Part shown: positions 4,445 through 20,651 of the stretch, piece after piece
How positions within the stretch are numbered: position 1 is the first letter of the stretch
Layout: the number at the start of each line of letters is the position of its first letter
DNA from: Dictyostelium discoideum
Lineage: Eukaryota
Reading direction: 5' to 3'
DNA: 64,000 nt
Assembly: GCA_000004695.1 (NCBI GenBank)
Contig: CM000153.2
Location: 1,152,001 to 1,216,000, forward strand
Translations under genes and position numbers: made by a program
The notes under the pieces: generated by a model
What the model saw: the letters and a program-made list of their open reading frames with translations, nothing else
What the model was told of the DNA's origin: nothing
Database searches by the model: none

Positions 4445-6750
4445 GTTTACATTATTATTATTTAAAGAATTTAAACTCTTATTTGAAGGTTCTTTTTGTA
4501 AAACTGGGATTGAAGTTTTCCCACTTCCTTTTTGTTTTAAACTATTATGACCACCTATTGTTACACTAGGATTTAAATGGTCCCCGTATGATAGTGCACC
4601 ACTAAGTGATACTGGCTGGGTTATTGATAAGTGAGTTTTTTCACTTGAAGTTCTTAAATACATATCTACATTGGTATTGCTACCTAAATTATTATTATTA
4701 TTATTATTATTGTTATTGTTATTATTATTATTAGTGTTATTAATATTATTATTAGTTAAATTATTTTGATTTGTGTACAAATGGAGATTACCACTAGATT
4801 GATAATAAGCTCCAAGGTTTTGATTTGATGCTGGTGTTGTTGTGGTAGTAGTTGTTGTTGTTGTTATATTTATATTGTTGTTATTGTTATTGTTATTGTT
4901 ATTATTATTAGTATTATTATCAGATTCCAATTCAAATTTAGTAGTTAATCTTGAATTCTTTGATAATGAAGATGGTGAAGATGATGCTGTAACTTTTAAA
5001 TTCTTTTCAAAATGTTCATGAAGGAATAAATCATTGGTTGGTGAATGTTGATCATCATCTGATGGTGGATGAAAGAAATCGTTGGTTAGTATTGAAGATC
5101 CTCTTTCTTTGTTATTTGATACACCAGAGGTTGAAGCTGATGCAGAGGAATTACTTAGTGATGGTGAATGAATTTGATGAGTCGATATGATTTTTCCAGG
5201 TGCAGTGAGTGGTGCAGATGAAGAACGTGTGTGATTAGTGTATGGTGAACCACTGCCACCACTTCCCAAAAGATTACCTTGACTAGATTCTTTATTCAAT
5301 AGCTCATTTGAACTATCCAATGAGGATTTTGAATTTAAGGTTGCATTTGCTAGGATTGGTGGTAATGGTGGTGGTGTTAAACCTAATTTAATCATATATT
5401 CATCTCTTTCCGTTACCAATTGAGAAATCATATCCTTCATTACCTTCTTCTCTTTCATTGCACGTAAAAAATGTAATTTCAATCTTTTGATTGTCTCTGT
5501 CATTTCTTTCTTTTGTGACTCCAATTGTTGAATACGATCATGGTCGCTGCCATTATTACTATTGGTTGTATCATCATCTGACTCTACATCATAACCTTCA
5601 GCATAAGTGTTGATTGATAGTTTCGACCCACTTCCACTAGATTTAATTCTTGATGGTTCAGGTGATGATGCTGGTTGTGATTGAGATGGTTCATGAATGT
5701 GCTGTTTTATCCATGGATGCTCTAAAAGTTGTGATGCTGTTGGTCTTTTATTTATATCTCTAACAAAACATGCCAATAAAAAGTGTTTTAAGTCTGCTGA
5801 TATATTATTTGGAATTGGTGGATGTGGATTATTAACCATTGCAAACATTGCTGGCATTGTTCCTAAATCCCAATATGGTGGATTACCCGTTAACATCTCT
5901 AATAATGTACAACCTAATGACCAAATATCACATGCTGTACTTCTTGCATTCATATCCATTTGTATAACTTCTGGTGCCACTATAAAATATATTAAAAAGA
6001 AAAAAATAAAAAAAAAAACATTATTAATATTTGACACAATCTATTTTCACTACAAGTCAATTAATATTATTTTTTTTAAAAAAAATAAACATACTCCAAA
6101 ATGGTGTACCAACAACTGTTAATTTTCTATCGATCGCTGAATAAGTACATGAACCAAAATCTGCTAATTTAATTACACCTTCTTTTGTTATGAGAATATT
6201 ATCGCTTTTTATGTCTCTATGAATTACACCTTTCTCATGAAGATATGCTAAACCTTTTAAAACTTGACTAAAGTATCTCGAGAGTAATGGTTCTTGAAAA
6301 CAACCATATCTCTTGGCAATCTTTGCCAATGATCCACCCTCTATAAATTCCAATGCAAAATAAAGATATCTTGAGGTTTCGTATGATTCTATAAACTTTA
6401 CAATGTTTGGATGTTGAAGTGTTTGCAATAATTTTATCTCTTGAATGATTGATGGTAATTGTTTCTCTGATATTATGGTTTTTTCAATCTGTTTAATTGC
6501 ACAGAAATCACCTGTTTCTGCATTTAATGCTTTAAAAACTTTACCAAATGCACCTTTACCAACAGCTTCTCCAATTTGCTAAAAATAAAAATAAAAAAAA
6601 ATTTAAATTTTAATTTTGATTTTGTTTTTTTTTTTTTTTTTTATTTTTTTAATAAAATAACTTTAGTATATTTCCATTGTATTTAAAACTATAAATATTA
6701 GTAATACATACATATTTACTAAAAGAGTCCGTTTCTTTTATTGTGTCCAT
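3677..6750 (-). CDS. Ser/Thr protein kinase, Cdc7(S. pombe)/Cdc15/septase-like, with long poly-N/S C-terminal extension; CDS join(6750..6712,6578..6095,5979..3677)
   Basis: Exon 1 is [13 protein letters not shown] with a GTATGT donor at 6711. Exon 2 follows a TTTTAG acceptor and reads [31 protein letters not shown]...HPNIVKF...[27 protein letters not shown]...VVGTPFW, ending at a GTATGT donor. Exon 3 follows TTATAG (ending 5980) and reads MAPEVIQ...[22 protein letters not shown]...HPWI, then about 600 aa of N/S/T-rich low complexity ending at 3677. Kinase subdomains I-XI are present. The best resemblance is to S. pombe Cdc7 / S. cerevisiae Cdc15 (GKGAFGxVY, HPNIVKY, [13 protein letters not shown], G(S/T)PYWMAPEVIE). 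This may be the Dictyostelium septase; the symbol is not asserted. About 941 aa. Confidence 0.8.
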
Positions 6751-7818
6751 TTTAGTATATGTGCGTATTTTTATTTTTCTATGTTTTTTATTATTATTAT
6801 TATTGTTATTATTATTATTATATACTTTTAATTTTTATTTTAATAAATTATTTGTTTTGAAACATCCAAAAAAAAAAAAAAAAAAACTATATGTAATTTT
6901 TTTCCTTTTTTTTTTTTTTTTTTCTTTATTTTATTTTATTTTATTTTATTTTATTTTTTACAAAAATATATTTAAAAAAGTATTTGAATCGGTTCCAATT
7001 GTAATCTATTTCGTTGTAATAGTGTAAAAAAATGGGGTCGCTTTCTTTTGTGAAGGTGATACAAATTTATTTGTATGTTTTTTGCTGAGAATTGAAAAAA
7101 AAAAAAAAAAAAAAAAAAAAAGTTAAAATTTAGTTTTTTTTTTAAAATTAAAAAAAAAAATAAAAAAAAAAAAAACCAATAAAAAAAAAAAAAACAATAA
7201 AAAAAATAAAAAAAAATAAAAAAAAATAAAAAAAAAAAAAATTTTTGATGGATAGATGAGGGGTGTTTGGTGTTGCCAATTGTTTTGGATATAAAAATTA
7301 AAAATTTTTTACAAACAAGCAAACAAGGGAAAGGAATAAATTAAATAAAAAAATAAAATAAAAATAAAACCAAAAAAAAAAAATTAATTTAATAGTACGA
7401 AAAATAGTAATAACTCTTATTATTTTTACTAAAAATATTGGGGTAAAAATGTATATTTTTAAATTTATTAATATATTTTTTTTTTTTAAAATTAATAATA
7501 CACAAAATATGGAAAATAATTAATTTGATGTGGCTAATAAATATAAAATATTTAATTATTTTAAATAAAATTATAAATTTTTTTATTTTTTATTTTTTAA
7601 AAAAACCATGTAAATAGATTTGTTAACTTTCATCACTATTTTTTAAAAAGGAAAAAAAAAAAAAAAAAAAAAATAATAAAATAAATAAATAAATAAATAA
7701 ATAAAATTAAAATAAAAATTAAATAATATATTTTTTAAAAATTACAATAAAAAATGTAATGTACATACATTTCAGTTAATGAAATAAATAAAATTTTATG
7801 AAAGAGTGAAAGTGTATC

Positions 7819-7849
<31 letters not shown>

Positions 7850-8699
7850 AGATAAAAAATTAATAACAATATTAAAAAAAAAAAAAAAAAAAAATAATAT
7901 AAATGAAAAAAAAAAAAATTCTAAAAATAATTATTACATATAATCTTAATACAGTGAAAATGTATTCGATTGTGACATGCAAAAATTTGTGAGTTTATTA
8001 CCACCATACCTTAAAGGGTGATTACTCATGTGGAAAAAAAAGCACCTCTTTATTTTTTTTTTTTATTTTTTTATTTTTTTTTTAATATTTTTTTTAACTA
8101 TGTGGGAATTTTATTCTTAATTTTTATTACTATTATAATTATTTCAAATATTAAAATTATTTTTATTAAAATAAATAATAATAGTAATAATAATAATAAA
8201 ATAAAAATATTAAGTTTTTTTTTTTTTTTTTTTTCCTTCTTTCGACTCTAATTCAATGAATTTTCAAAAATGATAAGAAATAGATTTTTAAGGTATTTTT
8301 GGTATTTTTCCAATTTGTTTTATTTTAAAATTTTTTTTTTATTTGTTGGAATTATATATAAAAGATAAAAATAATAAATATATATAATAATGAAGATGGT
8401 GGGATTTTTCCTTTTTTTTTTTTTTTTTTTTTTTACAAAAAAAAAAAAATTTATATCCAATTTAATCCCTTTTAAAATAAAATCTAAAAATTTGTTTTAA
8501 TTCAGAAATTAATGGAAATTTTCATTTTCAAAAAATTTTTTGTTAAATTGGCTAACTAAAAAAAAAAAAAAAAAAAAAAAAACCAAAAATTAAAAAAATA
8601 AATAAAAAAACTTTTTTATTTTTTTTTTTTTATTTAGTTATTTTATTGGTTGTGTGTTAAGACACACATAAAATTTACAATTAAATAAATTAATGAAAT

Positions 8700-11137
8700 A
8701 TGAATAAAGATAATAGTATTAATAAAAATAATGTAAACAATGATAATAATAATAATATCAATAATAATGTAATTAAAAAATTAAAAGAAGAAGTATCATT
8801 AAAGGTTAGATCATCAGTTGTAATAGTTTCATTGGAACAAGCTATTGAAGAGATAATATTTAATTCAATAGACGCAAGAGCAACAGTAATATCTATTTCA
8901 ATAAATTTATCGAATCTATCATTCGAGGTAAAAGATAATGGATTTGGATTGTCATATGAAAATTTAAAATTTGTTGGAGATCGTAATTGTACTTCAAAGA
9001 TCAACTCACTCTCTGATCTTAAATCATTAAAAACATTTGGATATCGTGGCGAATCATTAGCAAGTTTATCAAATATATCATCATTAGATATAATTTCAAA
9101 TTCATTTGGTTCAACCATTCAAAAATCAATTTCATTTGGCAAAGTTGACCAATTTAAAATTTTAGATAATAATAATAGTAGTAGTTGTGATAATAATAAT
9201 AATAATGTTAATAATAATAATATTAATAATAATAATAATAATTCAATAGCTAATGGCACAATTGTAAAGATTAGAGATTTATTTAAAAATTATCCTGTAA
9301 GAAGACAAGGTTTATATCATCCAAATTTAAAACTAATAATTAAAAAGAGAATTGAAATCATAGCTTTATCATTCCCAAAGATTGTATTCTCAGTTTATGA
9401 TGAAACAAAGAGTTTAACTATACTAAAAACACCAAAAGATACATCATTTCTTTCTTATTTCAAACATTTCTACGGTCAAGAGATGATGAATAAATTAGAA
9501 TACGTAACCTCTGAAAATTATAATAATACCACCAACAATAATAGTAGTTCTTACTATTTATCTGGTTATCTTTCTTCACCTCATAAAAAAGGTCATCCAA
9601 ATAAATCTTTTCAATATATTTGTAAGTTTTTTTTTTTTCTTGAACAATGAAAAAAAAAAAAAAAGAATTAATATTAATAATCAATTAATATATATATAAA
9701 AAGATTTAAATAATAGAATAGTTTTAAATACAAAATTACACAGACATGTTAATCAATTATATCAAAAGTATAGATTATTTAATGCAACCAGAAAAGCAAA
9801 CGCAAATGTATCAAAAATTGCAAAAAAAGAGGTGATTGATAGTAATCCAATATTCATACTATTTTTAAGATGCTCACAATTAGAATATGAACGTTCTTAT
9901 GAACCTTCTTCAAAAACATTTTTAGAATTTAATGATTGGAAGAAACCTTTGGCTGAAATTCAAAATGTTTTAACAAAATTTTTAACAAAACATAGATCTG
10001 ATGATGGTGGAAATTCAAGAGGTAAATCAATAACTACAACAGCACTACCATCATCTCAACCAAATAATTATGATGGAAAATCAACATCAACATCAACAAC
10101 AACAACAACAACAGCAGGTGATATTTCAATATTTGAAGATGATGATTTATCAAATGTTGTTCAAGACACCCAAGAAGATGATGGTGATGGCTTTGATATG
10201 GGATATAGCAGTAGTATCGATGAAGATGAAATAATGAGTTCTCAAAATGTTCGTGGTACAAGTGTTGACCAAGATAATAATATATATGAAAATGAAGATC
10301 ACCAAGGAATGCAAATTGGTTTTGATGATTTAGATAATAACCAAATCGATAGTAGTGAGGATGAGGAACATTTAAAAAGATTAAAAGAAATAGAAGAGGA
10401 AAAACAATACATTAATGATATTTTACCAGACTCTTTCTTTATGAATGATAAAAATGCAACAACAACTACCACAACAACAACAACAACAGGTACACCAACT
10501 AAAACAACAACAACTACAAATAATTCTATATCACCATTTAAAACAATCAAGAACATCTTCACAACAAACATCACCATTCAAATCTATAGTATCACCTTTA
10601 CAAATTTCTCCACCAAAAACAACTCTTTCGCAAAGTCAAATACAGAAATCATCACCTCTTAAACTATCAAATGTAAATAATCAAATAATTGACCAATCAC
10701 CACAATCTTCTTATGATGAATCAATAGAAGTTACACAACAACCATCTACTTTACCATTGTCTCCAATTCCTTCACCTCGTATTCATAGAAATATTCCACA
10801 CAATAAAAAAGATGATACTGCTTCCACATTACAAACAACAGATCCTTACGAGAGTTCGTCAAGGGATGTAACAGATTCTCGATCATCAGCGGATTCAGAT
10901 GCAACCATTTTAGATGATAGCCCACCTCCAAGACCACCAATATTCAATTTCCCACAAACTAAAAATTCAATACCCACAGATGAAAATCACTTTCATTCAA
11001 ACATAGAAGATCAAGAGGAAGAAAGAAGTGAAGATACAACCACAATGACTCCAACATCTAAATTAAACATATCATCCCAAACACCACCTACACTTCCACC
11101 AACTACCATTCCACATATCACAAATAACTCAACCCAA

Positions 11138-11214
<77 letters not shown>

Positions 11215-13945
11215 TAATAATAATGAAAATAAAGATTTGGTTCCATTTGTTAAAGTGGAACAAAATAATGATAAGCAATTAGCAATATATAAAAATGAAT
11301 CAGACGATGATGATGAGGAAGAAGATAATAATAATGATGATAAAGAAAAAAGAAAATACCAATTAAAAGTTTCAACATTTAGAGAAGTAATTGATGTCGA
11401 CCAAATGGATGTAACAACAATTACTACAACAACTACAACTATTAAAAGTGTAAAAACAGTTACTACAAAAACTTTATCACCATTTAGCAAGGCTGCACTG
11501 GCATCAGATGCTTTAAAAAAGAATCAATATAAGGTAAAGACAGAACATCCAATATTAATTAAAGAGGAAGATTATAAAGAATTAGACTCTTTGAAAAATA
11601 CCTCCAATAATGATCAACTAAATGATTCTTCATTATTTAGTAATTCATGTCTTGATATTGTTCCATTTGAAATTAGTGATGATGAAGCAGATGAAGACGA
11701 TGACAATTTAACAGGTTTAAATGGGCAAAAATTATTATTTTTAGAAGATGGTAAACCAACAAATAATGGTAATAGTAATAATACTCTTGCAGCAGCAGCA
11801 ACAACAACAACAACAACAACTACTACTACTACTACTACTTCACCTTTTCAAAGTAGTCCACCATCTTCACCATTATCACAACCAATTAAATCTATAATCT
11901 CTCAACAAACAACACCTCCAAAAAATGTAAGAAAAAATGATATTTTTGATGAAGATGAAAAATCAAACACATTATCATCACCAATTAAAAAGTTAAAGAC
12001 TGAAAATGACATTCAAAATAATATTGCTGACAGTAATGGTAATAAAAACAAAAACACTACAACCGATAATATTGAAATAATAGTTTTGGATGATAGTGAT
12101 GAAGATTTACCTCAAAATGAACAAACAACGTCAAAATATTTTAAATCAAATGAACAATTATCATCAACAGAGTCAACAAAATCAAAACTAAATCAAATTA
12201 TTTGTAAATTAGAAAAAGAATCGTCACAATCACAACAACTAACAATACCAATAACATCAACAACCTCAACCTCGGACTTAGCACCAACCTCAACCTCGAA
12301 CTCAGCATCAACCTCAACACCAACTATCCAAACTATAAAGACAACGTCAAACCCACTTACAATTCCTGAAATATCATTCTTGAGAAAACCAACGGCTAAT
12401 GAAGAAAAGAAATCTTTATTCAGTGATTCTGAATTATCAACCACTGAAAGTGAGGGATCCTATAATGAAGGTTTTATTTTGTCATCATCATCATCATTAT
12501 TAAAGAAAAGAGTTTTATTTAACATGGAAGGCAATCAATACTATTCACCACCTCAAATTCAAAATAACTCCTCCAGTGACCAAGATGAAGAGTATAATGC
12601 TAGTCTAACTTCACCACCACCATCACCAAAACAACAATACCAAAATCACTATGAACAAAATGAAAAAGGAAATCTTTTTATTAAAGAAGAAAAAGAAAAA
12701 GAAAAAGAAAAAGAAAAAGAAAAAGAAAAAGAAAAAGAAAAAGAATTAGAAAAAGAAAAAGAATTAGAAAAAGAATTAGAAAAAGAAAAAGAATTGGAAA
12801 AAGAAAAAGAATTAAAAAAGAAAAATGATGACGAGGTACAACAAGTACAAGAAAAAGAACATGATGACCATTGTTGTCCAACTCATAACATTGGTGATCA
12901 TTTAACACTTAGTGGTATTGGTAATATTAAAGAACATCAAGACGATGAATCTCTTGGAGATGATGATGAAGAAAAAGAATTTATTCATGATTCTGATTAT
13001 AGTAAAATTGAATTGGCGAAAAAATATAATTATACTGATGATAGAATTAGTCCATTCTTTGATAAAAGTATTAAACCTGGTGTTGAAATGAAAGATATCA
13101 ATATTAATGTTAGTGGTTTTATTAAAGAAGTTCTATCTCAAAAATGTACAGAGGTAATACCAAAGGAAATGTTACAAAACTTTAAATTTATCACTCAATG
13201 GGATAACAAGTTTTTAATTTGCGAAGCAGATGGTATTGTATTGATTTTAGATCAACATGCCGTTTCAGAAAGAATCAAATTGGAAATATTAGAAAGAAAG
13301 TATTTTGGTGAGAATAAATTCGACCTTTGTCCAATGCCAGAGAGAACAAGATGGTCATTAACAGAGTATGAATTGGAACTAATGAGAATCTATACAAAAC
13401 CATTGGAACAATGGGGATTCAAATGGACATTCAATAAAACTTCAATAAACATTTCACAAGTACCAATGTTTTGTTTAGTAGGTTTGGGTGTAAACGATCT
13501 CAGAGAATTTCTTTATCAATTAGAAAGTAGTAAAGGAGCAACTTCAAATAGACCTCCTGCTGCTCATAGAATTTTAGCTTCAAAAGCATGTAGAAGTATG
13601 TATCAATTTTAAAAATTAGTAGTATTAGTTTTATTGAATTTTTCAACACATTAATATTAACTTTTTTTTTTTTTTATAAAAACTAAAAAAAATAGCTGCA
13701 ATTAAATTTGGTAATAAACTTTCAAGAGAGATTTGTATAAAACTATTAGAAGATTTAAATGAATGTAATATTCCATTTCAGTGTGCTCAGTGAGTATTTC
13801 TTTTTTTATTTTATTTTGATTTTTATTTATTATCTCATTATAAATTTACTAATTATTATTAATTTTATTTTTTAGTGGAAGACCAAGTATAATCCCTTTA
13901 ATTAATTATGGTAAACTCTTTAGTTCAGTAAAAGGTTTATATTAA
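8700..13945 (+). CDS. mlh3: DNA mismatch repair protein MutL homologue MLH3; CDS approx join(8700..9621,9797..~10489,~10590..13595,13696..13789,13876..13945) with an unresolved frame break near 10445-10660
   Basis: The N-terminal GHKL ATPase region reads IKKLKEEVSLKVRSSVVIVSLEQAIEEIIFNSIDARAT...VKDNGFGLSYENL...TSKI...TFGYRGESLASLS and matches MLH3 (VIDNGFGM, YGFRGEALA). The C-terminus carries the MutL endonuclease motif DQHAVSERIKLE. After two short 3' introns (GTATGT at 13596, GTGAGT at 13790) the protein ends SKACR-TAIKFGNKL...CNIPFQCAHGRPSIIPL, matching the MLH3-specific AIKFGD...PFQCAHGRPSM. A very long S/T/N/Q/E-rich linker includes an (EK)n tract. The first-intron acceptor was chosen as the first phase-compatible AG (9796), which is uncertain. 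The ORF frame switches between 9832..10662 and 10445..13612; see findings. Confidence 0.75.
12686..12830 (+). repeat. (GAAAAA)n / GAATTAGAAAAA-type hexamer array inside mlh3 CDS encoding (EK)n-ELEKEKELEK
   Basis: The direct tandem gaaaaa gaaaaa ... is visible and translates to KEEKEKEKEKEKEKEKEKELEKEKELEKELEKEKELEKEKELKKK in the mlh3 frame. Confidence 0.8.
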
Positions 13946-14069: not shown

Positions 14070-14305
14070 TTAATAATTTGTTAAAGCAACTTGTTTTTGA
14101 AAAGAAGGATAAAAATTTTTCTTTGGATATTTGAGGGCAGAAGAGGTTGTTGTTGCTACTGCCCCAAAATCACCATTATCATTATTATTATTTTCATTAT
14201 CATTGTTAATATCATTATCATTATTTTCATTATTATTATTATTATTATTATTGTTATTATTATCCTCATCATTATTAATATTATTAATAATATTACTATT
14301 ATTAC

Positions 14306-14375
<70 letters not shown>

Positions 14376-14393
14376 AATATTATTAATATTATT

Positions 14394-14424
<31 letters not shown>

Positions 14425-15758
14425 TTGATATTATTATTATTATTATTTGTGTTTGTATTATTTAGAAAATAATTATTATTATTATTAATATTATTTAATT
14501 CCAATTTTTTAAAAGTTTTTATTGTTTCGTTAAATGTTGAAGAGGTTAGCTTTTGTTGATCCTTTTTTGGATCTTTATTTTCTTTAATTTGTACAGTTTT
14601 ATTGTTATTATTATTATTATAATTATAATTATTAATATCGAAGTTTTTTGGAGGTTGAACTTGTTGAGTTGGATACCAATAGTTTCCATGAGGATTAACA
14701 TTTCCTAATCCCATTACGTTTGTTGAATTATTTTCATAAAATTCTTTCATCATTTCAATATCGGTTAATTTTAATTCATACTCTTTGGCATTTGTATTGG
14801 ATCTACAATATAATTTATCAAATAATACTTTTCTGAACTATAATTTTTAAATAAAAAAAAAAAGAAAATTATTTATTATTAATATAAATATATATTTCAA
14901 ATTATTATTACTATTTATTATTTATTATTTATTATTTACATTAATTTTTGAGAAATAACTGTGTGGTGAAATTGTATAATATAAATCCTCATTTCCTTTG
15001 TCAGAAATATAAATTGGTCTACCATCAGTTGAGAATCTATCAAAACCTAAATAAAAACTAACTTGATCGACATCTACACCATAGTATTTTTTTATTAATT
15101 GATTTTTAGTTGGTCTATAATTATATTTTTCAAAAAAGTCTATTGAATTTTCAATGATTGTTTGTGATGGCTCTTGAATTGTTGTTCCAAATAAAATGGT
15201 GTGGGATATGTTATCTTTAGTTAATTCCATTATTTTATTGAAAGTTTCAAGTAGAATTGGATCATTACCACGTTCTAATAATTTTATATATTCTCCATAG
15301 AATATTACACGAATACCACATTCTTTGTATAATTTTACCAATGTTTCATTTTCAAGTAATGCCTTTAATCCACTTAAATATTTAATAAACTTTGGTAAAT
15401 ATTCTGGCCCACGATCTTCAAGTGTGCAAAACCACATTGGATAAACTATTGTCTTTATACCATGTTTAAACATCATAACCAAATCAAATAATAATTTTGA
15501 AATTGCCGTTTTACAATAATCATCATAATCAATTGTAGTTTTTTCATCTTTTCCAGTAAATTTGCATTTATTATTATGAATTCCATTAGTTTGTAATTTA
15601 GAAATTGTATTTTCAATTAAGTAAGATCTTCTTGTACCATCATATGCATAAACCATAGTATTGCAATTATTTAATCTTGAGTTTATAATTTTACTAATCT
15701 CATTATCTGTTAATTTATTAAATTCTTGAAAATTACTATAATGGGATATTGGTGTCAT
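14070..15758 (-). CDS. paralogue A of a lineage-specific protein family (distant cis-prenyltransferase/UPPS-like fold?) with internal poly-N; CDS join(15758..14940,14837..14070)
   Basis: Exon 1 reads MTPISHYSNFQ...MVYAYDGTRRSYLI...IVYPMWFCTLEDRGPEYLPKFIKYL...GIRVIFYGEY...FYLGFDRFSTDGRPIYISDKG...SPHSYFSKIN with a GTAAAT donor at 14939. Exon 2 follows TTATAG (ending 14838) and reads FRKVLFDKLYCRSNTNAKEYELKLTDIEMMKEFYENNS...poly-N...ALKYPKKNFYPSFQKQVALTNY*. It is about 528 aa. A second copy lies 3 kb away (next feature). Spacing of xAYDGTRRSY / VYPMWFxxLE / GIRVIFYG weakly recalls the DGNRR, TxYAFSxEN and R(V/L)xxGD motifs of UPP synthase/NgBR; this is a hypothesis only. Confidence 0.7.
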
Positions 15759-16357
15759 GATTTATATATAATTATTTTATAATTATTATTATTTATTATT
15801 TATTATTATTATTTTACTTCCTTGTTGTTAAAAATTGTTAATTTTTTTTTTTTTTTTTATATTTATTATTTTAAATACTTTTTAATTTGAAAATTATTAT
15901 AATTTAAATTATTATTTAAAAAATTTAATATTTATTAAAACAAATGATTTGATCAAGATTTATTGAAAAAAAAAAAAAATTATAAATAAATAAATTTTAA
16001 AACAAAAAATAAAAATAAAACAAAATTTAAAAAAATATAAATAAATTTTAAATAATACACGTGGGTGTAAAATAAAATAAAATAAAAAAATAAAATTTAA
16101 AATGAAATAAAAAAATTTTAAGAAGAATCTATAACAAGAGTATGTAGGAAGTATATTTTAATATTAAAAAATGTGGGAAGGGTGATATACTTGAGAAATT
16201 AAAAATTATGATAATTTAATTATTTAAAATTTATTATAAAAAAATAAAATAAATGTTTTTATAACCTTTGTGATGATAATACTGATAAATCAAAGATATA
16301 ATTAAAGATTGATCTAATCGATTATTATAAAATATATATACGAGGTTTATATTTTTT

Positions 16358-16388
<31 letters not shown>

Positions 16389-16540
16389 TTTTAAAAAAAA
16401 AATAATAAAAATAAAAAGAAAATATGAAATGATTGTATTTGAGTGATGATAAAAAAAAAAATTAAAGTTAACAATTGTTTTAACTAAAAAAAAAAATAAA
16501 AAATAAAAAAAATAAAAATTTTAAAATAGAATAAAAATAG

Positions 16541-16576
<36 letters not shown>

Positions 16577-18093
16577 ATTAAAATTTAGGGAAAAAATTTA
16601 TGGTTTGAAAAAAATTATATGTTTGTTTTTAATTTTTTAAATTTGGATAATAAAAATCAAATAAAATTGAAAATAATATTTTTGGTTTGAACAAATTGTT
16701 ATAGATTATTGCTCTACACAATTAATAAATAATTTACAAAATTATTTATTTAAAACCTTTAAATTTACAAATAACTATATACGAAAAAAAAAAATTAAAT
16801 AAAAAAATAATAAAAAAAAAATGAAATAATTAAAAATTTTAATATTAAAATAAGAGAAAAAAAAAAAGTATTAAGTAATACTCAAAATAGCAACATAAAA
16901 AATAATAAAAATAATAATAATAATAAAAAAAAAAAAAAAAAAAAAAAAATCGTCAAAATAACAAACATACCAATAATTCCAACCACATAAAAAATATTAT
17001 AATTTAACAATACTATAAATATAATTATCCATTCATTATAATTATCATTATTTAAATTTTTAATTATCAACTCTTCAATTCACACAAATTAATAGTATTC
17101 ACCACCCTTTTTGGAATCCTCATTAGATTTTTATTCTATAAATTTTAATGAACAAAAATGAGAGAAGAATTTTATTATTTAAAAAAAAAATAAAATAAAA
17201 TAAAAAAAAATTAAATAAAAAAAAAAATAAAAAAAAAAAAACAATCAACTACAAATTCATCAACGATTTTTTAAAGTATATGTGTGAAAATTAATTTTTA
17301 AAAATCATTTAAGTATAAGAGGGTATAAGTTTAATTATTTATATGAGAGAGTTTATGAATAATCTGTTAAAAGATTTATAAATATTTTTTTTTTTTTTTT
17401 TTTTTTGTTTGTGTTAATAAAGGTGTTGTTTTTACTTGTATTTTTTTTGGGGGGGTAGTTAAGTGGTATTCAGTAATATTTTTTTGGAAAATTAACGGAG
17501 ATAATATGTTGATTTATCGAATACAATCTTTTGAACATTTATGTGTTAAAAGTTAACCCTAAAATGGAATATTTTAAAATGAAAAAATATTAAAAGTAGG
17601 ATAAATTGTGGAAAGTATTTATTTTGATAAATAGTTGTAAGGTTTTATTATACCTTTATCATCATATGTATCATCATTTTCTAATTTGTGGATTTTTAAT
17701 ATTAACAACATATTTTTTTAAAAAGGGTGAAAAAAAAAAATAAAAAATAAAAAATAAAAACAATTTGGCAGTTGTAATTTAATTATTTTACAAATATAAA
17801 ATAACAATAACAAGAAAAAAAAAAGAAAAAAAAAAAGAAAAAAAAAGAAAAAGATACATTAACATCAACATCAACATTAGGAAAAAATACATACATGTAT
17901 AGGTATATATTTAAATACACACACTTATTCAAAATTAGAAATTTTAACCATTTGCGCTCTAATCATATTTTTTTTCATGTTTCCATTTTAAATCATTACT
18001 AATTATTGAAAATCTACATTTAGAATTGAATGGGTATCAAAGGGTTTAAATTATTTTTTGTATTATAATTTTAATTCTTTAAATATAAATAAA

Positions 18094-18129
<36 letters not shown>

Positions 18130-18816
18130 GTGAACAAACTATTACACCATTGAATAATCATATTATTTAAAATTCATTAGTTATGGTGATTGGTAAATTA
18201 TCATAAACAAAACGATTAGTTGTATTCTCGCAATTCTTTCAAATTCCAACATTTCTATTTTAATAATTATTTTCAAATGAATTTTAAGTGGTGTTTTATG
18301 AGAAAAAAATAAATAATATTCTAATGGTAAATAATCATTTTTAAATATATTGGTGGTTAAAAGATTTATTTAATTTTTGTCTTGTGTTGTTTATTATTTG
18401 AATTTGGTTTTTTTTTTTTTTTTATTTTTTTTTTATTTTTTTATAATTATTTGTTTATAATTATTTGTTTTATAAATATTATTTTTTGATTGGGTAAATG
18501 TTTGACTTGTAAAATTAAGTTTGAAAAAAAAATAAAATAAAATAAAATAAAATTATTTTTTATATTTAATGAATGTGTTTATTTGAATTTGAAAAGTCAA
18601 AAAACTAAAAAAAAATAAAAAAAAATTATCTTTTGGAAAGTGTTTCTATTTTTAGAATAAATGCACAGTAATTTTTTAACAGATAAAAAAAAAAAAAAAA
18701 AAAAATCATTTTTTTTTTTTATTCATATTTGTATTTTTTTATTTTTTTATTTTATTTTTTATTTATTTAAAATTATAAAAAATATATTTTATATTATACA
18801 TTAAAAAAATCAATTA

Positions 18817-18843
<27 letters not shown>

Positions 18844-18849
<6 letters not shown>

Positions 18850-18989
18850 AAATTTGTCAAGGTATCTTGGTGATGATGGTGATCCCATTGAAATGTTTTG
18901 TTTAATTGTTAATGTTTGACAATATTGATATTGATTTTCTTCATTTATAAATGAATTATGTTGTTTACATCCCATTAAATTATTATTAC

Positions 18990-19046
<57 letters not shown>

Positions 19047-20176
19047 TACCATTATTATTACTACCATTATTACTATTATTACCATTATTACTATTACTAT
19101 TATTGTTATTATTATTATTTAAATTTGAATTAATATCAAGTTGTTTGAAGAGTTTAAATGCTTCATTTGTTGGTGATGATAAAACTATAGTTTGATTATC
19201 ATCATAATTTGGTTTTTCTATTGATTTTTGAGGTAATTCAACTTGAGGGCTAGGATGCCAATAATTTCCATTTGGGTTTACATTACCAATACCCATTATA
19301 TTATTTGAATTATTTTCATAAAATTTTTTCATCATTTCAATATCATTAACTTTTAATTCATATTCTTTAGCATTTGTTATAGTTCTTTGATAAATATGAT
19401 CATATAAAACTTTTCTAAACTAAAACATTATTTAAGTTAATATTATTAGGGAATTGAATATAATTTAATTAAATTAAAAAAAAAATAAAAAAAAAATAAA
19501 AAAAAAAACATACTCCATTAGTTGATAAGAAAGAATGTGGTGAAACTGTATAATATAAATCTTCTGCACCTTTATCAGATATTAAAATTGGTCTTCCATC
19601 TGTGGAAAATCTATCAAATCCTAAATAAAATGATACATCATCAATTTGGGTATTAACACCATAATAATGTTGAATTAAATCATTTTTAGTTGGTTCTGAG
19701 GAAAAAAAAAAAAAAAAAAAGGGAGAAAGGGGGGAAGGGGTTAGAAGTTGATCGAAAAACAAAATTTTCAAATAAAAAAAATTAAATATTAAAAAATGAA
19801 AAACATACCCCTTCCAAATTTTTTATAAAATGATAATGTATTATTAATTATAGTTTGAGATGGTTCTTCGATATTAGTACCTAATAATAATATTTTATTT
19901 GAATTATTTTTTGTTTTATCCATAATCTCTTCGAATTTTGATAAAAGTTCATTATCATTACCACGTTCTAATAATTTTTTATATTCACCATAAAATATAA
20001 TTCTAACCCCATTCTCTTGAAATAATTTAAAAAAATCATAATTTGGATCTAACAACTTTGATAAACCCCATAAATATTGAATAAACTTTGGCAAATATTC
20101 TGGCCCACGTTTTTCTAATGTACAAAACCACATTGGGTAAACAATATTTTTAATTCCATGCTAAAAAAAAAAAAAA

Positions 20177-20216
<40 letters not shown>

Positions 20217-20651
20217 TAATTAATTATAAATAAATAATAAAATAAAATGGAAATTAAGTAATTAAAAACTTACTTGGAACATCATAATTGATAAATATAA
20301 AAAATTATGAACTGCGGTCTTACTATATTCATTGTAATCAATTTTAATTTCTGTATTTTTATTATTATTAATATTATTATTATTACTATTATTATTATTA
20401 TTTGAAATATTATTTGAATTATTATTTAAATTATTATAATTGGCAGAATTTGAAGTATTGGCAGATGTAGCCAATGGAGAATTACAAACTTTTAAATTTT
20501 TTAAACCTTGAGAAATGAGATAAGATCTTCTAGTACCATCGTAGGCAAAAACCATTGTTGAATTTTCACCTTTTAAAGAGGTATATAATTTTGAAATTTC
20601 ATCATTTGAAAGTTTATAAAAATTTTCTTCTAAAATATTATTATTGGTCAT
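18844..20651 (-). CDS. paralogue B of the same family; CDS join(20651..20274,20160..19809,19695..19514,19419..18844)
   Basis: Exon 1 reads MTNNNILEENFYKLSNDEISK...MVFAYDGTRRSYLI...poly-N...LYLSIMMFQ with a GTAAGT donor. Exon 2 reads HGIKNIVYPMWFCTLEKRGPEYLPKFIQYL...VRIIFYGEYKKLLERGND...KKFGR and ends at a GTATGT donor in phase 1. Exon 3 reads EPTKNDLIQHYYGVNTQIDDVSFYLGFDRFSTDGRPILISDKGAEDLYYTVSPHSFLSTNG with a GTATGT donor. Exon 4 reads FRKVLYDHIYQRTITNAKEYELKVNDIEMMKKFYENNS...*. It is about 495 aa and colinear with paralogue A, but has three introns against one in A. Confidence 0.7.
19691..19760. other. G-rich block (gggagaaaggggggaaggggttag) inside intron 2 of paralogue B; atypical composition
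   Basis: Runs of 4-6 G in a genome with about 22% G+C. It lies within the intron between exons 2 and 3. Confidence 0.5.

Follow-up and report, generated by a model that had tools for sequence, protein, structure and literature searches.

Two tandem genes of Dictyostelium discoideum as probable eukaryotic members of the Rv3378c family with a predicted role in prenyl transfer

To which protein family do two tandem genes of Dictyostelium discoideum belong, and do their products still act as enzymes? Both genes, called copy A and copy B, lie in a stretch of 64,000 nucleotides (assembly GCA_000004695.1, contig CM000153.2, positions 1,152,001 to 1,216,000 of the forward strand) that is referred to here as the window. 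A first-pass annotation, made from the letters alone, described them as paralogues of a lineage-specific family with cis-prenyltransferase-like motifs, possibly non-catalytic. The reading favored here, held with more confidence than doubt, is that they form a eukaryotic tandem pair of long standing within the Rv3378c family and belong to a non-elongating branch of the cis-prenyltransferase fold, for which a role in prenyl transfer is predicted. Rv3378c of Mycobacterium tuberculosis joins tuberculosinyl diphosphate to adenosine to give 1-tuberculosinyladenosine (1-TbAd) and also produces (iso)tuberculosinol; 1-TbAd is an abundant lipid of this bacterium that neutralizes lysosomes, and Rv3378c is regarded as a horizontally acquired virulence gene nearly specific to tuberculosis (TB) (PMC11476799, PMC7321100).

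Membership of A and B in the Rv3378c family is strongly indicated by sequence and by a structural model. Among PDB sequences, a phmmer search with copy A finds Rv3378c (3WQK, 3WQL, 4CMV and 4KT8, termed “diterpene synthase”) at E=7e-39 and 137 bits, in a match that spans chain residues 47-293, with the DGTRR segment aligned as well. BLASTP gives 28% identity over 320 residues for A (E 6e-45) and 27% over 256 residues for B (E 2e-38), and a 62-sequence family profile (A3) scores 363 bits on 3WQK. An AlphaFold2 model of copy A, built on 21 dictyostelid sequences (pLDDT 78, pTM 0.77), was compared with PDB structures by Foldseek. The top 14 matches are all Rv3378c chains (E 1e-20 to 1e-18, target TM 0.74-0.77). 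They are followed by UPPS, decaprenyl- and dodecaprenyl-diphosphate synthases, Z,Z-FPP synthase, lavandulyl-type synthases and the human DHDDS/NgBR complex, with E values of about 1e-7 to 5e-6 and a target TM of ~0.7 for UPPS, DPPS and DHDDS. The structural comparison with UPPS and NgBR proposed in the first-pass annotation thus ranks Rv3378c first, then UPPS and DHDDS/NgBR. Its cis-prenyltransferase idea was right about the fold, which both Foldseek and profile homology to UPPS and DHDDS bear out; the guess was too vague and missed the specific family.

Could A and B be divergent conventional cis-isoprenyl diphosphate synthases, which condense isopentenyl diphosphate (IPP) with an allylic primer to yield a dehydrodolichyl-type or short cis-prenyl diphosphate? 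Profile homology to UPPS and DHDDS (E 2e-9 to 1e-5) speaks for this: profile A3 finds Campylobacter jejuni UPPS at 2e-9, DHDDS at 5e-6 and Escherichia coli UPPS at 8e-6, and motifs I to III and V align. The four motif pairings suggested at first reading reappear in the profile alignment to C. jejuni UPPS, namely DGTRR with DGNRRW, VYPMW..E.R with FAFSTENWKR, (I/V)R(V/I)IFYG(E/D)Y with VRLRAIGDL and GFDRFST with RVGNAKRLSNF (family first). However, neither protein matches PF01255 (Prenyltransf) even at E<=10, and Pfam and NCBIfam scans of A and B returned only noise from the low-complexity tails. The segment 'LRVGNAKRLSNFLLWQ' of C. jejuni UPPS aligns over the family consensus 'IgfdkfsvfdlPllis', in such a way that its Arg, Arg and Ser face G238, T244 and G246 of copy A. 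These three residues of the C. jejuni enzyme are equated here with R194, R200 and S202, which bind IPP in E. coli UPPS (motif V). The Gly/Thr/Gly replacement and the missing PF01255 match together suggest that A and B are not chain-elongating enzymes. Both also carry the C-terminal extension specific to Rv3378c (FY..N....G.G.....W.P; alignments A1 and A3), and the nearest characterized relatives, Rv3378c and the kolavelool synthase of Herpetosiphon, use no IPP (PMC8131916). A conventional synthase is accordingly rated highly improbable.

The supposition of a lineage-specific family did not hold, given the direct phmmer match to Rv3378c and hundreds of bacterial members. While a word-indexed search with copy A returned only dictyostelid “hypothetical proteins”, a HMMER run of a profile built from 21 dictyostelid sequences, exhaustive over 1.84e9 representative proteins (E<=1e-3), gave 249 proteins only, and all those examined are Rv3378c-like. 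A gap in the scores separates the dictyostelid matches (<=1e-113) from the next ones (2e-53 downward), which are bacterial-type proteins of ~300 residues. The best bacterial BLASTP matches of A and B (P0061, P0078 and P0060; ~30-32% identity) are metagenome proteins of the Chloroflexota group, and the named genomes nearest to P0078 belong to Anaerolineae. Rv3378c itself, used as a query, finds metagenomic relatives, some of them named “tuberculosinol/isotuberculosinol synthase” or “adenosine tuberculosinyltransferase”, together with a protein from an Anaerolineales metagenome-assembled genome.

When 185,579 species genomes of bacteria and archaea were scanned, 192 loci were confirmed, and the genomic context was examined for the best 80 (L001-L080). 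All of these 80 belong to Chloroflexota (Anaerolineae, Caldilineaceae, Thermoflexales, Promineifilaceae and Aggregatilinea), and in 73 a class II terpene cyclase lies directly downstream on the same strand. Natural fusions of transferase and class II cyclase (P0084 and P0087; 828 and 803 residues, with SQHop_cyclase domains) are labelled “halimadienyl-diphosphate synthase” by JGI, and a further fusion joins a haloacid dehalogenase (HAD) phosphatase to the transferase (P0150, 559 residues). By sequence, these pairs and fusions mirror the M. tuberculosis locus Rv3376-Rv3377c-Rv3378c. Outside mycobacteria, the proteins nearest to Rv3378c are metagenomic, with 53-57% identity (P0025-P0029). One of them, P0026 (ENA metagenome contig k141_423999, locus L087, gene 4833-5732; contig GC 0.46), shows the same transferase-cyclase arrangement within an apparent operon of a FemAB-like gene, a sulfotransferase, an ICMT/PEMT methyltransferase, the Rv3378c-like gene and the class II cyclase.

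The question of catalysis requires the gene models, whose features are as follows (window coordinates).

14070..15758, minus strand: copy A gene, ATG at 15758 and stop at 14070, 528 residues, one intron
14940..15758, minus strand: copy A exon 1
14070..14837, minus strand: copy A exon 2, stop codon included
14838..14939, minus strand: copy A intron, 102 nt, GT..AG, phase 0, directly before the FRKV codons and homologous to copy B intron 3
14654..15758, minus strand: copy A Rv3378c-like catalytic domain, residues 1 to ~335, split by the intron, supported by phmmer, the AlphaFold2 model and Foldseek
15641 (D40), 15632 (R43), 15629 (R44), 15518 (Y81), 15413 (R116), 15401 (Y120), minus strand: starts of key codons in copy A
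14201..14471, minus strand: Asn-rich low-complexity tract in the C-terminal tail of copy A, residues 396-486
18844..20651, minus strand: copy B gene, 495 residues, three introns
20274..20651, 19809..20160, 19514..19695 and 18844..19419, minus strand: copy B exons
20161..20273 (113 nt), 19696..19808 (113 nt) and 19420..19513 (94 nt), minus strand: copy B introns, all GT..AG, phases 0, 1 and 0
19236..20651, minus strand: copy B Rv3378c-like catalytic domain, residues 1 to ~366
20369..20425, minus strand: Asn-rich insertion of copy B, residues 77-95, in the loop that joins the DGTRR helix to that of the Tyr51 equivalent
20540 (D38), 20531 (R41), 20528 (R42), 20327 (Y109), 20109 (R144), 20097 (Y148), minus strand: starts of key codons in copy B
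18844..19235, minus strand: C-terminal tail of copy B, with an Asn-rich tract (residues 407-450, 18982..19115) followed by the terminal peptide GSPSSPRYLDKFI
15759..18843, no strand: spacer between the copies, 3085 bp, non-coding, AT-rich

Most of what had been read from the letters about this pair stands. The two genes do share a strand, the minus strand of an AT-rich window, and lie 3 kb apart, with a spacer of 3085 bp. They are colinear throughout, every motif quoted for them is present, and BLASTP gives 51% identity over 413 residues (E=5e-134). Copy B has three introns and copy A one, the shared intron lying exactly before FRKV in both. The poly-Asn expansions indeed occupy different, non-homologous places (residues 396-486 in A, 77-95 and 407-450 in B), and the insertion at residues 77-95 of B falls in a loop to which the copy A model assigns low pLDDT. 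Support for the splice models is good, since splicing restores colinearity with the intronless bacterial homologues and an intronless copy of Polysphondylium violaceum, and since all four junctions are identical in the independent GenBank models ACTFIW_001599 and ACTFIW_001600, which form the same tandem pair in GCA_054859355.1. The former (P0068; 95% identity to A over 390 aligned columns by BLASTP) shares the copy A junction, and the latter (P0067) shares the three of copy B, which can also be read in the D. purpureum orthologue. The ACTFIW_001599 model additionally splices out part of the poly-Asn tract (L081 9376-9615; residues 418/420). The same tract is an uninterrupted reading frame in the window (14201-14471), and the extra splice is probably an annotation artefact of low-complexity sequence.

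Are the active-site residues retained? When 105 bacterial members are aligned with 22 from dictyostelids, conservation among the bacterial sequences reaches 85% or more in 31 columns. Both copies retain all 31, with changes only of the I/L, F/Y and I/V kind. Equivalents of D34, R37, R38, Y51, R86 and Y90 of Rv3378c are found in 17/17 canonical dictyostelid sequences; they correspond to D40, R43, R44, Y81, R116 and Y120 in A and to D38, R41, R42, Y109, R144 and Y148 in B. The first three lie in a (D/N)-G-T-R-R loop, which reads D40-G-T-R43-R44 in A and D38-G-T-R41-R42 in B. Among the 105 bacterial members, R37 is conserved in 88% and R38 in 94%, and Tyr occupies the Y51 and Y90 positions in 88 and 96 sequences, respectively. 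PDB titles record that Y51F and Y51F/Y90F mutants of Rv3378c were crystallized with substrate. A catalytic role for these two tyrosines was reportedly proposed by Chan et al. (JACS, 2014), and the residue roles in Rv3378c are reported in that paper and in one by Layre et al. (PNAS, 2014). Purifying selection acts on both genes: when each is compared with its orthologue in GCA_054859355.1, the ratio of non-synonymous to synonymous substitution rates (dN/dS) comes to 0.09 for the domain of A and to 0.22 for B over its full length.

These observations bear on the suggestion that A and B are non-catalytic proteins of the cis-prenyltransferase fold, acting as accessory or regulatory subunits like NgBR/Nus1 or as lipid-binding proteins. 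The fold itself is present, the amoebal sequences are divergent with long low-complexity tails, and a sister group within the family has indeed lost key residues. In this group, made up of DDB_G0275279 (P0015, on chromosome 2 of strain AX4), ACTFIR_006953, P0014, P0016, P0018 and P0020, equivalents of R37, R38 and Y51 are gone and R86 is replaced by Lys, while the remaining fold-defining residues are kept. It forms a clade specific to group 4 (bootstrap 99/100), and DDB_G0275279 is 54% identical to copy A. The residue loss suggests that non-catalytic members probably exist in the same genomes. A and B themselves, in contrast, keep every residue conserved across the family, including the diphosphate-binding arginines and both tyrosines, and the low dN/dS of the A domain implies constraint over its whole length. 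The label “non-catalytic” therefore does not suit A or B, for which it is considered clearly improbable; judged by sequence it fits the DDB_G0275279-type paralogues, which are candidates for a non-catalytic, NgBR-like partner or for a neofunctionalized enzyme.

DDB_G0275279 is the only family member found in the AX4 protein set. It appeared in a structural note of 2021, in which its I-TASSER model was structurally closest to PDB 3WQM; the entry was termed a “hydrolase”, BLAST gave nothing, and no conclusion on family, evolution or function was drawn (MicroPubl Biol 2021, PMC8280847).

What reaction might A and B catalyze? Sequence comparison makes a Mg-dependent allylic prenyl-diphosphate transferase/hydrolase the most likely answer, and moderate confidence attaches to this general chemistry. 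Rv3378c and the Herpetosiphon kolavelool synthase are the two enzymes of the cis-prenyltransferase family known to hydrolyze an allylic diphosphate (PMC8131916). The Rv3378c branch ionizes an allylic prenyl diphosphate and passes the prenyl cation to a nucleophile, which is N1 of adenosine in M. tuberculosis and water, yielding prenols, in vitro and in Herpetosiphon. In the amoebal proteins, Mg2+ and the prenyl diphosphate would be bound at the D-G-T-R-R loop (D40, R43 and R44 in A; D38, R41 and R42 in B) with R116 or R144, while the tyrosine pairs Y81/Y120 of A and Y109/Y148 of B may help to release the diphosphate and to handle the cation, a role that has been proposed for Y51 and Y90 of Rv3378c. 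The product would be a prenylated small molecule or a prenol. Because no class II cyclase is linked to the dictyostelid copies examined, the likeliest donor is a linear prenyl diphosphate such as geranylgeranyl diphosphate (GGPP) or farnesyl diphosphate (FPP). Candidate acceptors are adenosine, water or another molecule, and adenosine in particular is possible, if rather unlikely. The terpene synthases (TPSs) of dictyostelids are presumably class I enzymes. Volatile-terpene TPSs have been reported in these organisms, with class assigned only to the Physarum enzymes (PMC6902781).

Several points weigh against this account. The enzymatic role of A and B is a prediction from sequence and a model. 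At ~28% identity to Rv3378c (over 256-320 residues), substrate specificity is not transferable by sequence comparison, and the roles of D34, R37, R38, Y51 and Y90 are taken from PDB titles and from the two papers attributed above to Chan et al. and Layre et al. No class II cyclase was found by tblastn in the 64-kb window or at six dictyostelid loci, and a search for such cyclases in a database of 5.8 billion proteins gave at least 2000 matches, of which all 120 listed are bacterial. Finally, the bacterial sister lineage of the amoebal clade is not resolved in a midpoint-rooted neighbor-joining tree.

How did such genes reach an amoeba? Members occur in D. purpureum, D. firmibasis, D. citrinum, D. 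dimigraforme, D. discoideum, P. violaceum, Tieghemostelium lacteum, A. subglobosum, Heterostelium album and C. fasciculata, so that all major dictyostelid groups are represented, and the survey of copies and introns that had been proposed for these genomes also finds shared intron positions. Among eukaryotes, the searches described above found the family only in Dictyostelia. The trees were made by neighbor joining only, with a midpoint root: Dictyostelia are monophyletic in 100/100 bootstraps and sister to the M. tuberculosis complex in 0/100, and the mycobacterial pair nests among the metagenomic sequences of 53-57% identity. The existence of a single dictyostelid clade, spread over all major groups and with shared introns, points to an ancient transfer independent of the mycobacterial one. 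The simplest reading of the sequences is that of two independent transfers from a Chloroflexota-dominated pool, one into the ancestor of Dictyostelia and the other into the ancestor of the M. tuberculosis complex. In the former case, a gene of bacterial origin, with a Chloroflexota-like donor as its most plausible source, would have entered the dictyostelid ancestor and acquired two introns (I2 and I3, below).

A transferred gene may also be a decaying relic, or the sequences may be assembly or contamination artefacts. Functional annotation and a Pfam domain are both missing, poly-Asn makes up a large share of each protein, and the bacterial partner gene is absent from the loci examined, as a relic or artefact might lead one to expect. 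On the other hand, the reading frames are intact, the introns canonical and the genes AT-rich like their host window. An MLH3-like gene accompanies the pair in D. purpureum too, orthologues occur in all major dictyostelid groups, and purifying selection is strong. Contamination is ruled out by the introns and host-typical flanking genes, and a pseudogene by introns, synteny and dN/dS. This explanation is largely refuted and retains hardly any likelihood.

That introns were lost or gained once the gene had duplicated, as the first-pass annotation held, is both confirmed and refined by the wider sampling. Intron I3 (before FRKV, phase 0) is found in A, B, a 320-residue D. discoideum paralogue, both D. 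purpureum copies, P. violaceum and H. album. Intron I2 (..FGR|EPTK) is shared by B, its D. purpureum counterpart, T. lacteum and H. album; it splits a codon in B (phase 1), in T. lacteum and in H. album. Intron I1 (MMFQ|HGI) is confined to the B orthologues of D. discoideum and D. purpureum. The D. purpureum locus carries a B-type gene with the same three introns, then an A-type gene with the FRK intron only, then the MLH3-like gene on the opposite strand. This distribution across species indicates that I2 and I3 are older than the dictyostelid radiation, that copy A lost I2 after the duplication, and that the duplication precedes the split of D. discoideum and D. purpureum. By the same comparison, I1 would either have been gained in the B lineage of group 4 or be ancestral, with several later losses. 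In P. violaceum (L083, AJWJ01000463.1), a same-strand pair consists of a B-type gene with one intron (P0005, 3201-4982) followed by an intronless copy of 328 residues (6323-7309); the tandem arrangement either predates group 4 or arose twice.

The C-terminus of copy B deserves a separate description. Its last residues, GSPSSPRYLDKFI (window 18844-18890), are kept in B-type orthologues across Dictyostelia, where the peptide follows a variable low-complexity tail (P0005, P0007, P0011 and P0017). It reads SPPSPRYLNNYV in the D. purpureum B-type protein (L082 ~5900-5955) and SP(S/A)LL(N/K)R(M/I)QPFLQ(S/P)S in P. violaceum and T. lacteum. A-type and 320-residue paralogues lack it. By its sequence, the peptide looks like a short linear motif for regulation or localization.

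As for the surroundings, the spacer holds no open reading frame of >=63 residues (the longest, of 62, is low-complexity) and no trace of a third copy by tblastn, and scans of spacer and flanks for tRNA and Rfam families gave no match. A modest GC bump at 17250-17700 coincides with no open reading frame or RNA match. Copy A adjoins, in convergent orientation, the multi-exon MLH3-like gene (MutL; 8697-13612, plus strand), which has long poly-N/T/Q tracts and whose D. purpureum counterpart (HATPase_c_3, MutL_C) also flanks the pair. An MRP-L47 gene near 25.3 kb of the window is likewise a neighbor of the T. lacteum orthologue. Local synteny is retained over long evolutionary distances. At DNA level, the window shows ~90% identity to a GenBank assembly labelled D. 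discoideum. No HAD phosphatase gene was found by tblastn in the 64-kb window or at six dictyostelid loci. In H. album (L085, GL290985.1, 7545-9618), the Rv3378c-like gene is followed directly downstream by two opposite-strand gene models with the domain of cytosolic purine 5'-nucleotidase (PF05761), which were not seen at the other dictyostelid loci examined. Such an enzyme would supply adenosine, so that this proximity may have a meaning, but chance is an equally good explanation.

A literature search found no paper linking Rv3378c with Dictyostelium genes, the sole relevant item being the structural note mentioned above. In a study of 2024, orthologues of the TbAd locus outside mycobacteria were not found, and the donor was inferred from nucleotide composition alone (PMC11476799). 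Against this background, the Rv3378c family turns out to have a large natural reservoir in Chloroflexota, nearly always paired with a class II terpene cyclase. This reservoir, the metagenomic relatives of 53-57% identity and L087 offer a concrete lead on the origin of the TB locus, and the amoebal clade is also relevant to the donor question raised in that study. In these amoebae, a whole lineage of eukaryotic phagocytes, the family has been retained and enlarged throughout the history of the group, with the catalytic residues intact. Dictyostelium would thereby gain a set of unannotated, probably active prenyl-transfer enzymes, and D. discoideum, being non-pathogenic and open to genetic work, provides a route to studying this chemistry in a phagocyte. 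The A/B locus is, furthermore, a clean and datable case of differential intron loss and gain in a horizontally acquired, duplicated gene.

A bolder proposal, unlikely when taken as a whole, is that social amoebae, themselves professional phagocytes, use Rv3378c-type enzymes to make terpene-nucleosides or related prenylated metabolites, for instance geranylgeranyl- or farnesyl-adenosine as an isomer or analogue of 1-TbAd, a lysosomotropic antacid, for endolysosomal control, developmental signaling or microbial warfare. DDB_G0275279-type proteins would then serve as NgBR-like heterodimer partners, and the amoeba and M. tuberculosis would have taken up the same Chloroflexota enzyme independently. 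If this were true, encounters of soil phagocytes with their prey would have involved such chemistry well before the first macrophages existed.

How, then, do the two genes compare with known systems? By sequence they appear as new eukaryotic members of a known enzyme family, and what is unusual in their own branch is the lack of a nearby cyclase partner, the expansion of paralogues with a degenerate branch and the low-complexity tails. Canonical cis-prenyltransferases (UPPS, the DPPS Rv2361c and DHDDS; PF01255) share the fold, detectable profile homology and motifs I, II, III and V with A and B. They differ in that A and B lack a Pfam match, do not conserve the residues that bind the IPP diphosphate and possess an extra C-terminal subdomain, and in that prenyl transfer or hydrolysis is predicted for the pair in place of chain elongation. 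NgBR/Nus1 likewise has the same fold, and complexes containing NgBR are among the Foldseek matches; A and B, however, keep the catalytic residues, have no evident transmembrane region and show sequence kinship to it no closer than the superfamily. It is the degenerate DDB_G0275279-type paralogues that resemble NgBR/Nus1, through the loss of catalytic residues; although paralogous to A and B, they lack R37, R38 and Y51, which are intact in the pair.

The Chloroflexota genes, including that of the Herpetosiphon aurantiacus kolavelool synthase (cited in PMC8131916), belong to the same family as A and B. Their proteins are ~300 residues long without tails, the genes directly precede a class II cyclase in 73 of the 80 loci, some family members being fused to one, and the first P-loop residue is mostly Asn. 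Rv3378c is the characterized system to which the comparison returns. The amoebal genes differ from it in being eukaryotic and intron-bearing, with Asn-rich insertions and low-complexity tails of 150-200 residues. They have no adjacent equivalent of the class II cyclase Rv3377c or of the HAD phosphatase Rv3376, and they form a family expanded into several paralogue groups whose phylogenetic origin is independent. The likeness to Rv3378c nevertheless extends over the full-length sequence and the fold, the D-G-T-R-R loop, which begins with Asp as opposed to the Asn of most Chloroflexota members, the equivalents of Tyr51 and Tyr90, those of R86, Y121-G122, D246 and R251, and the family-specific C-terminal extension.

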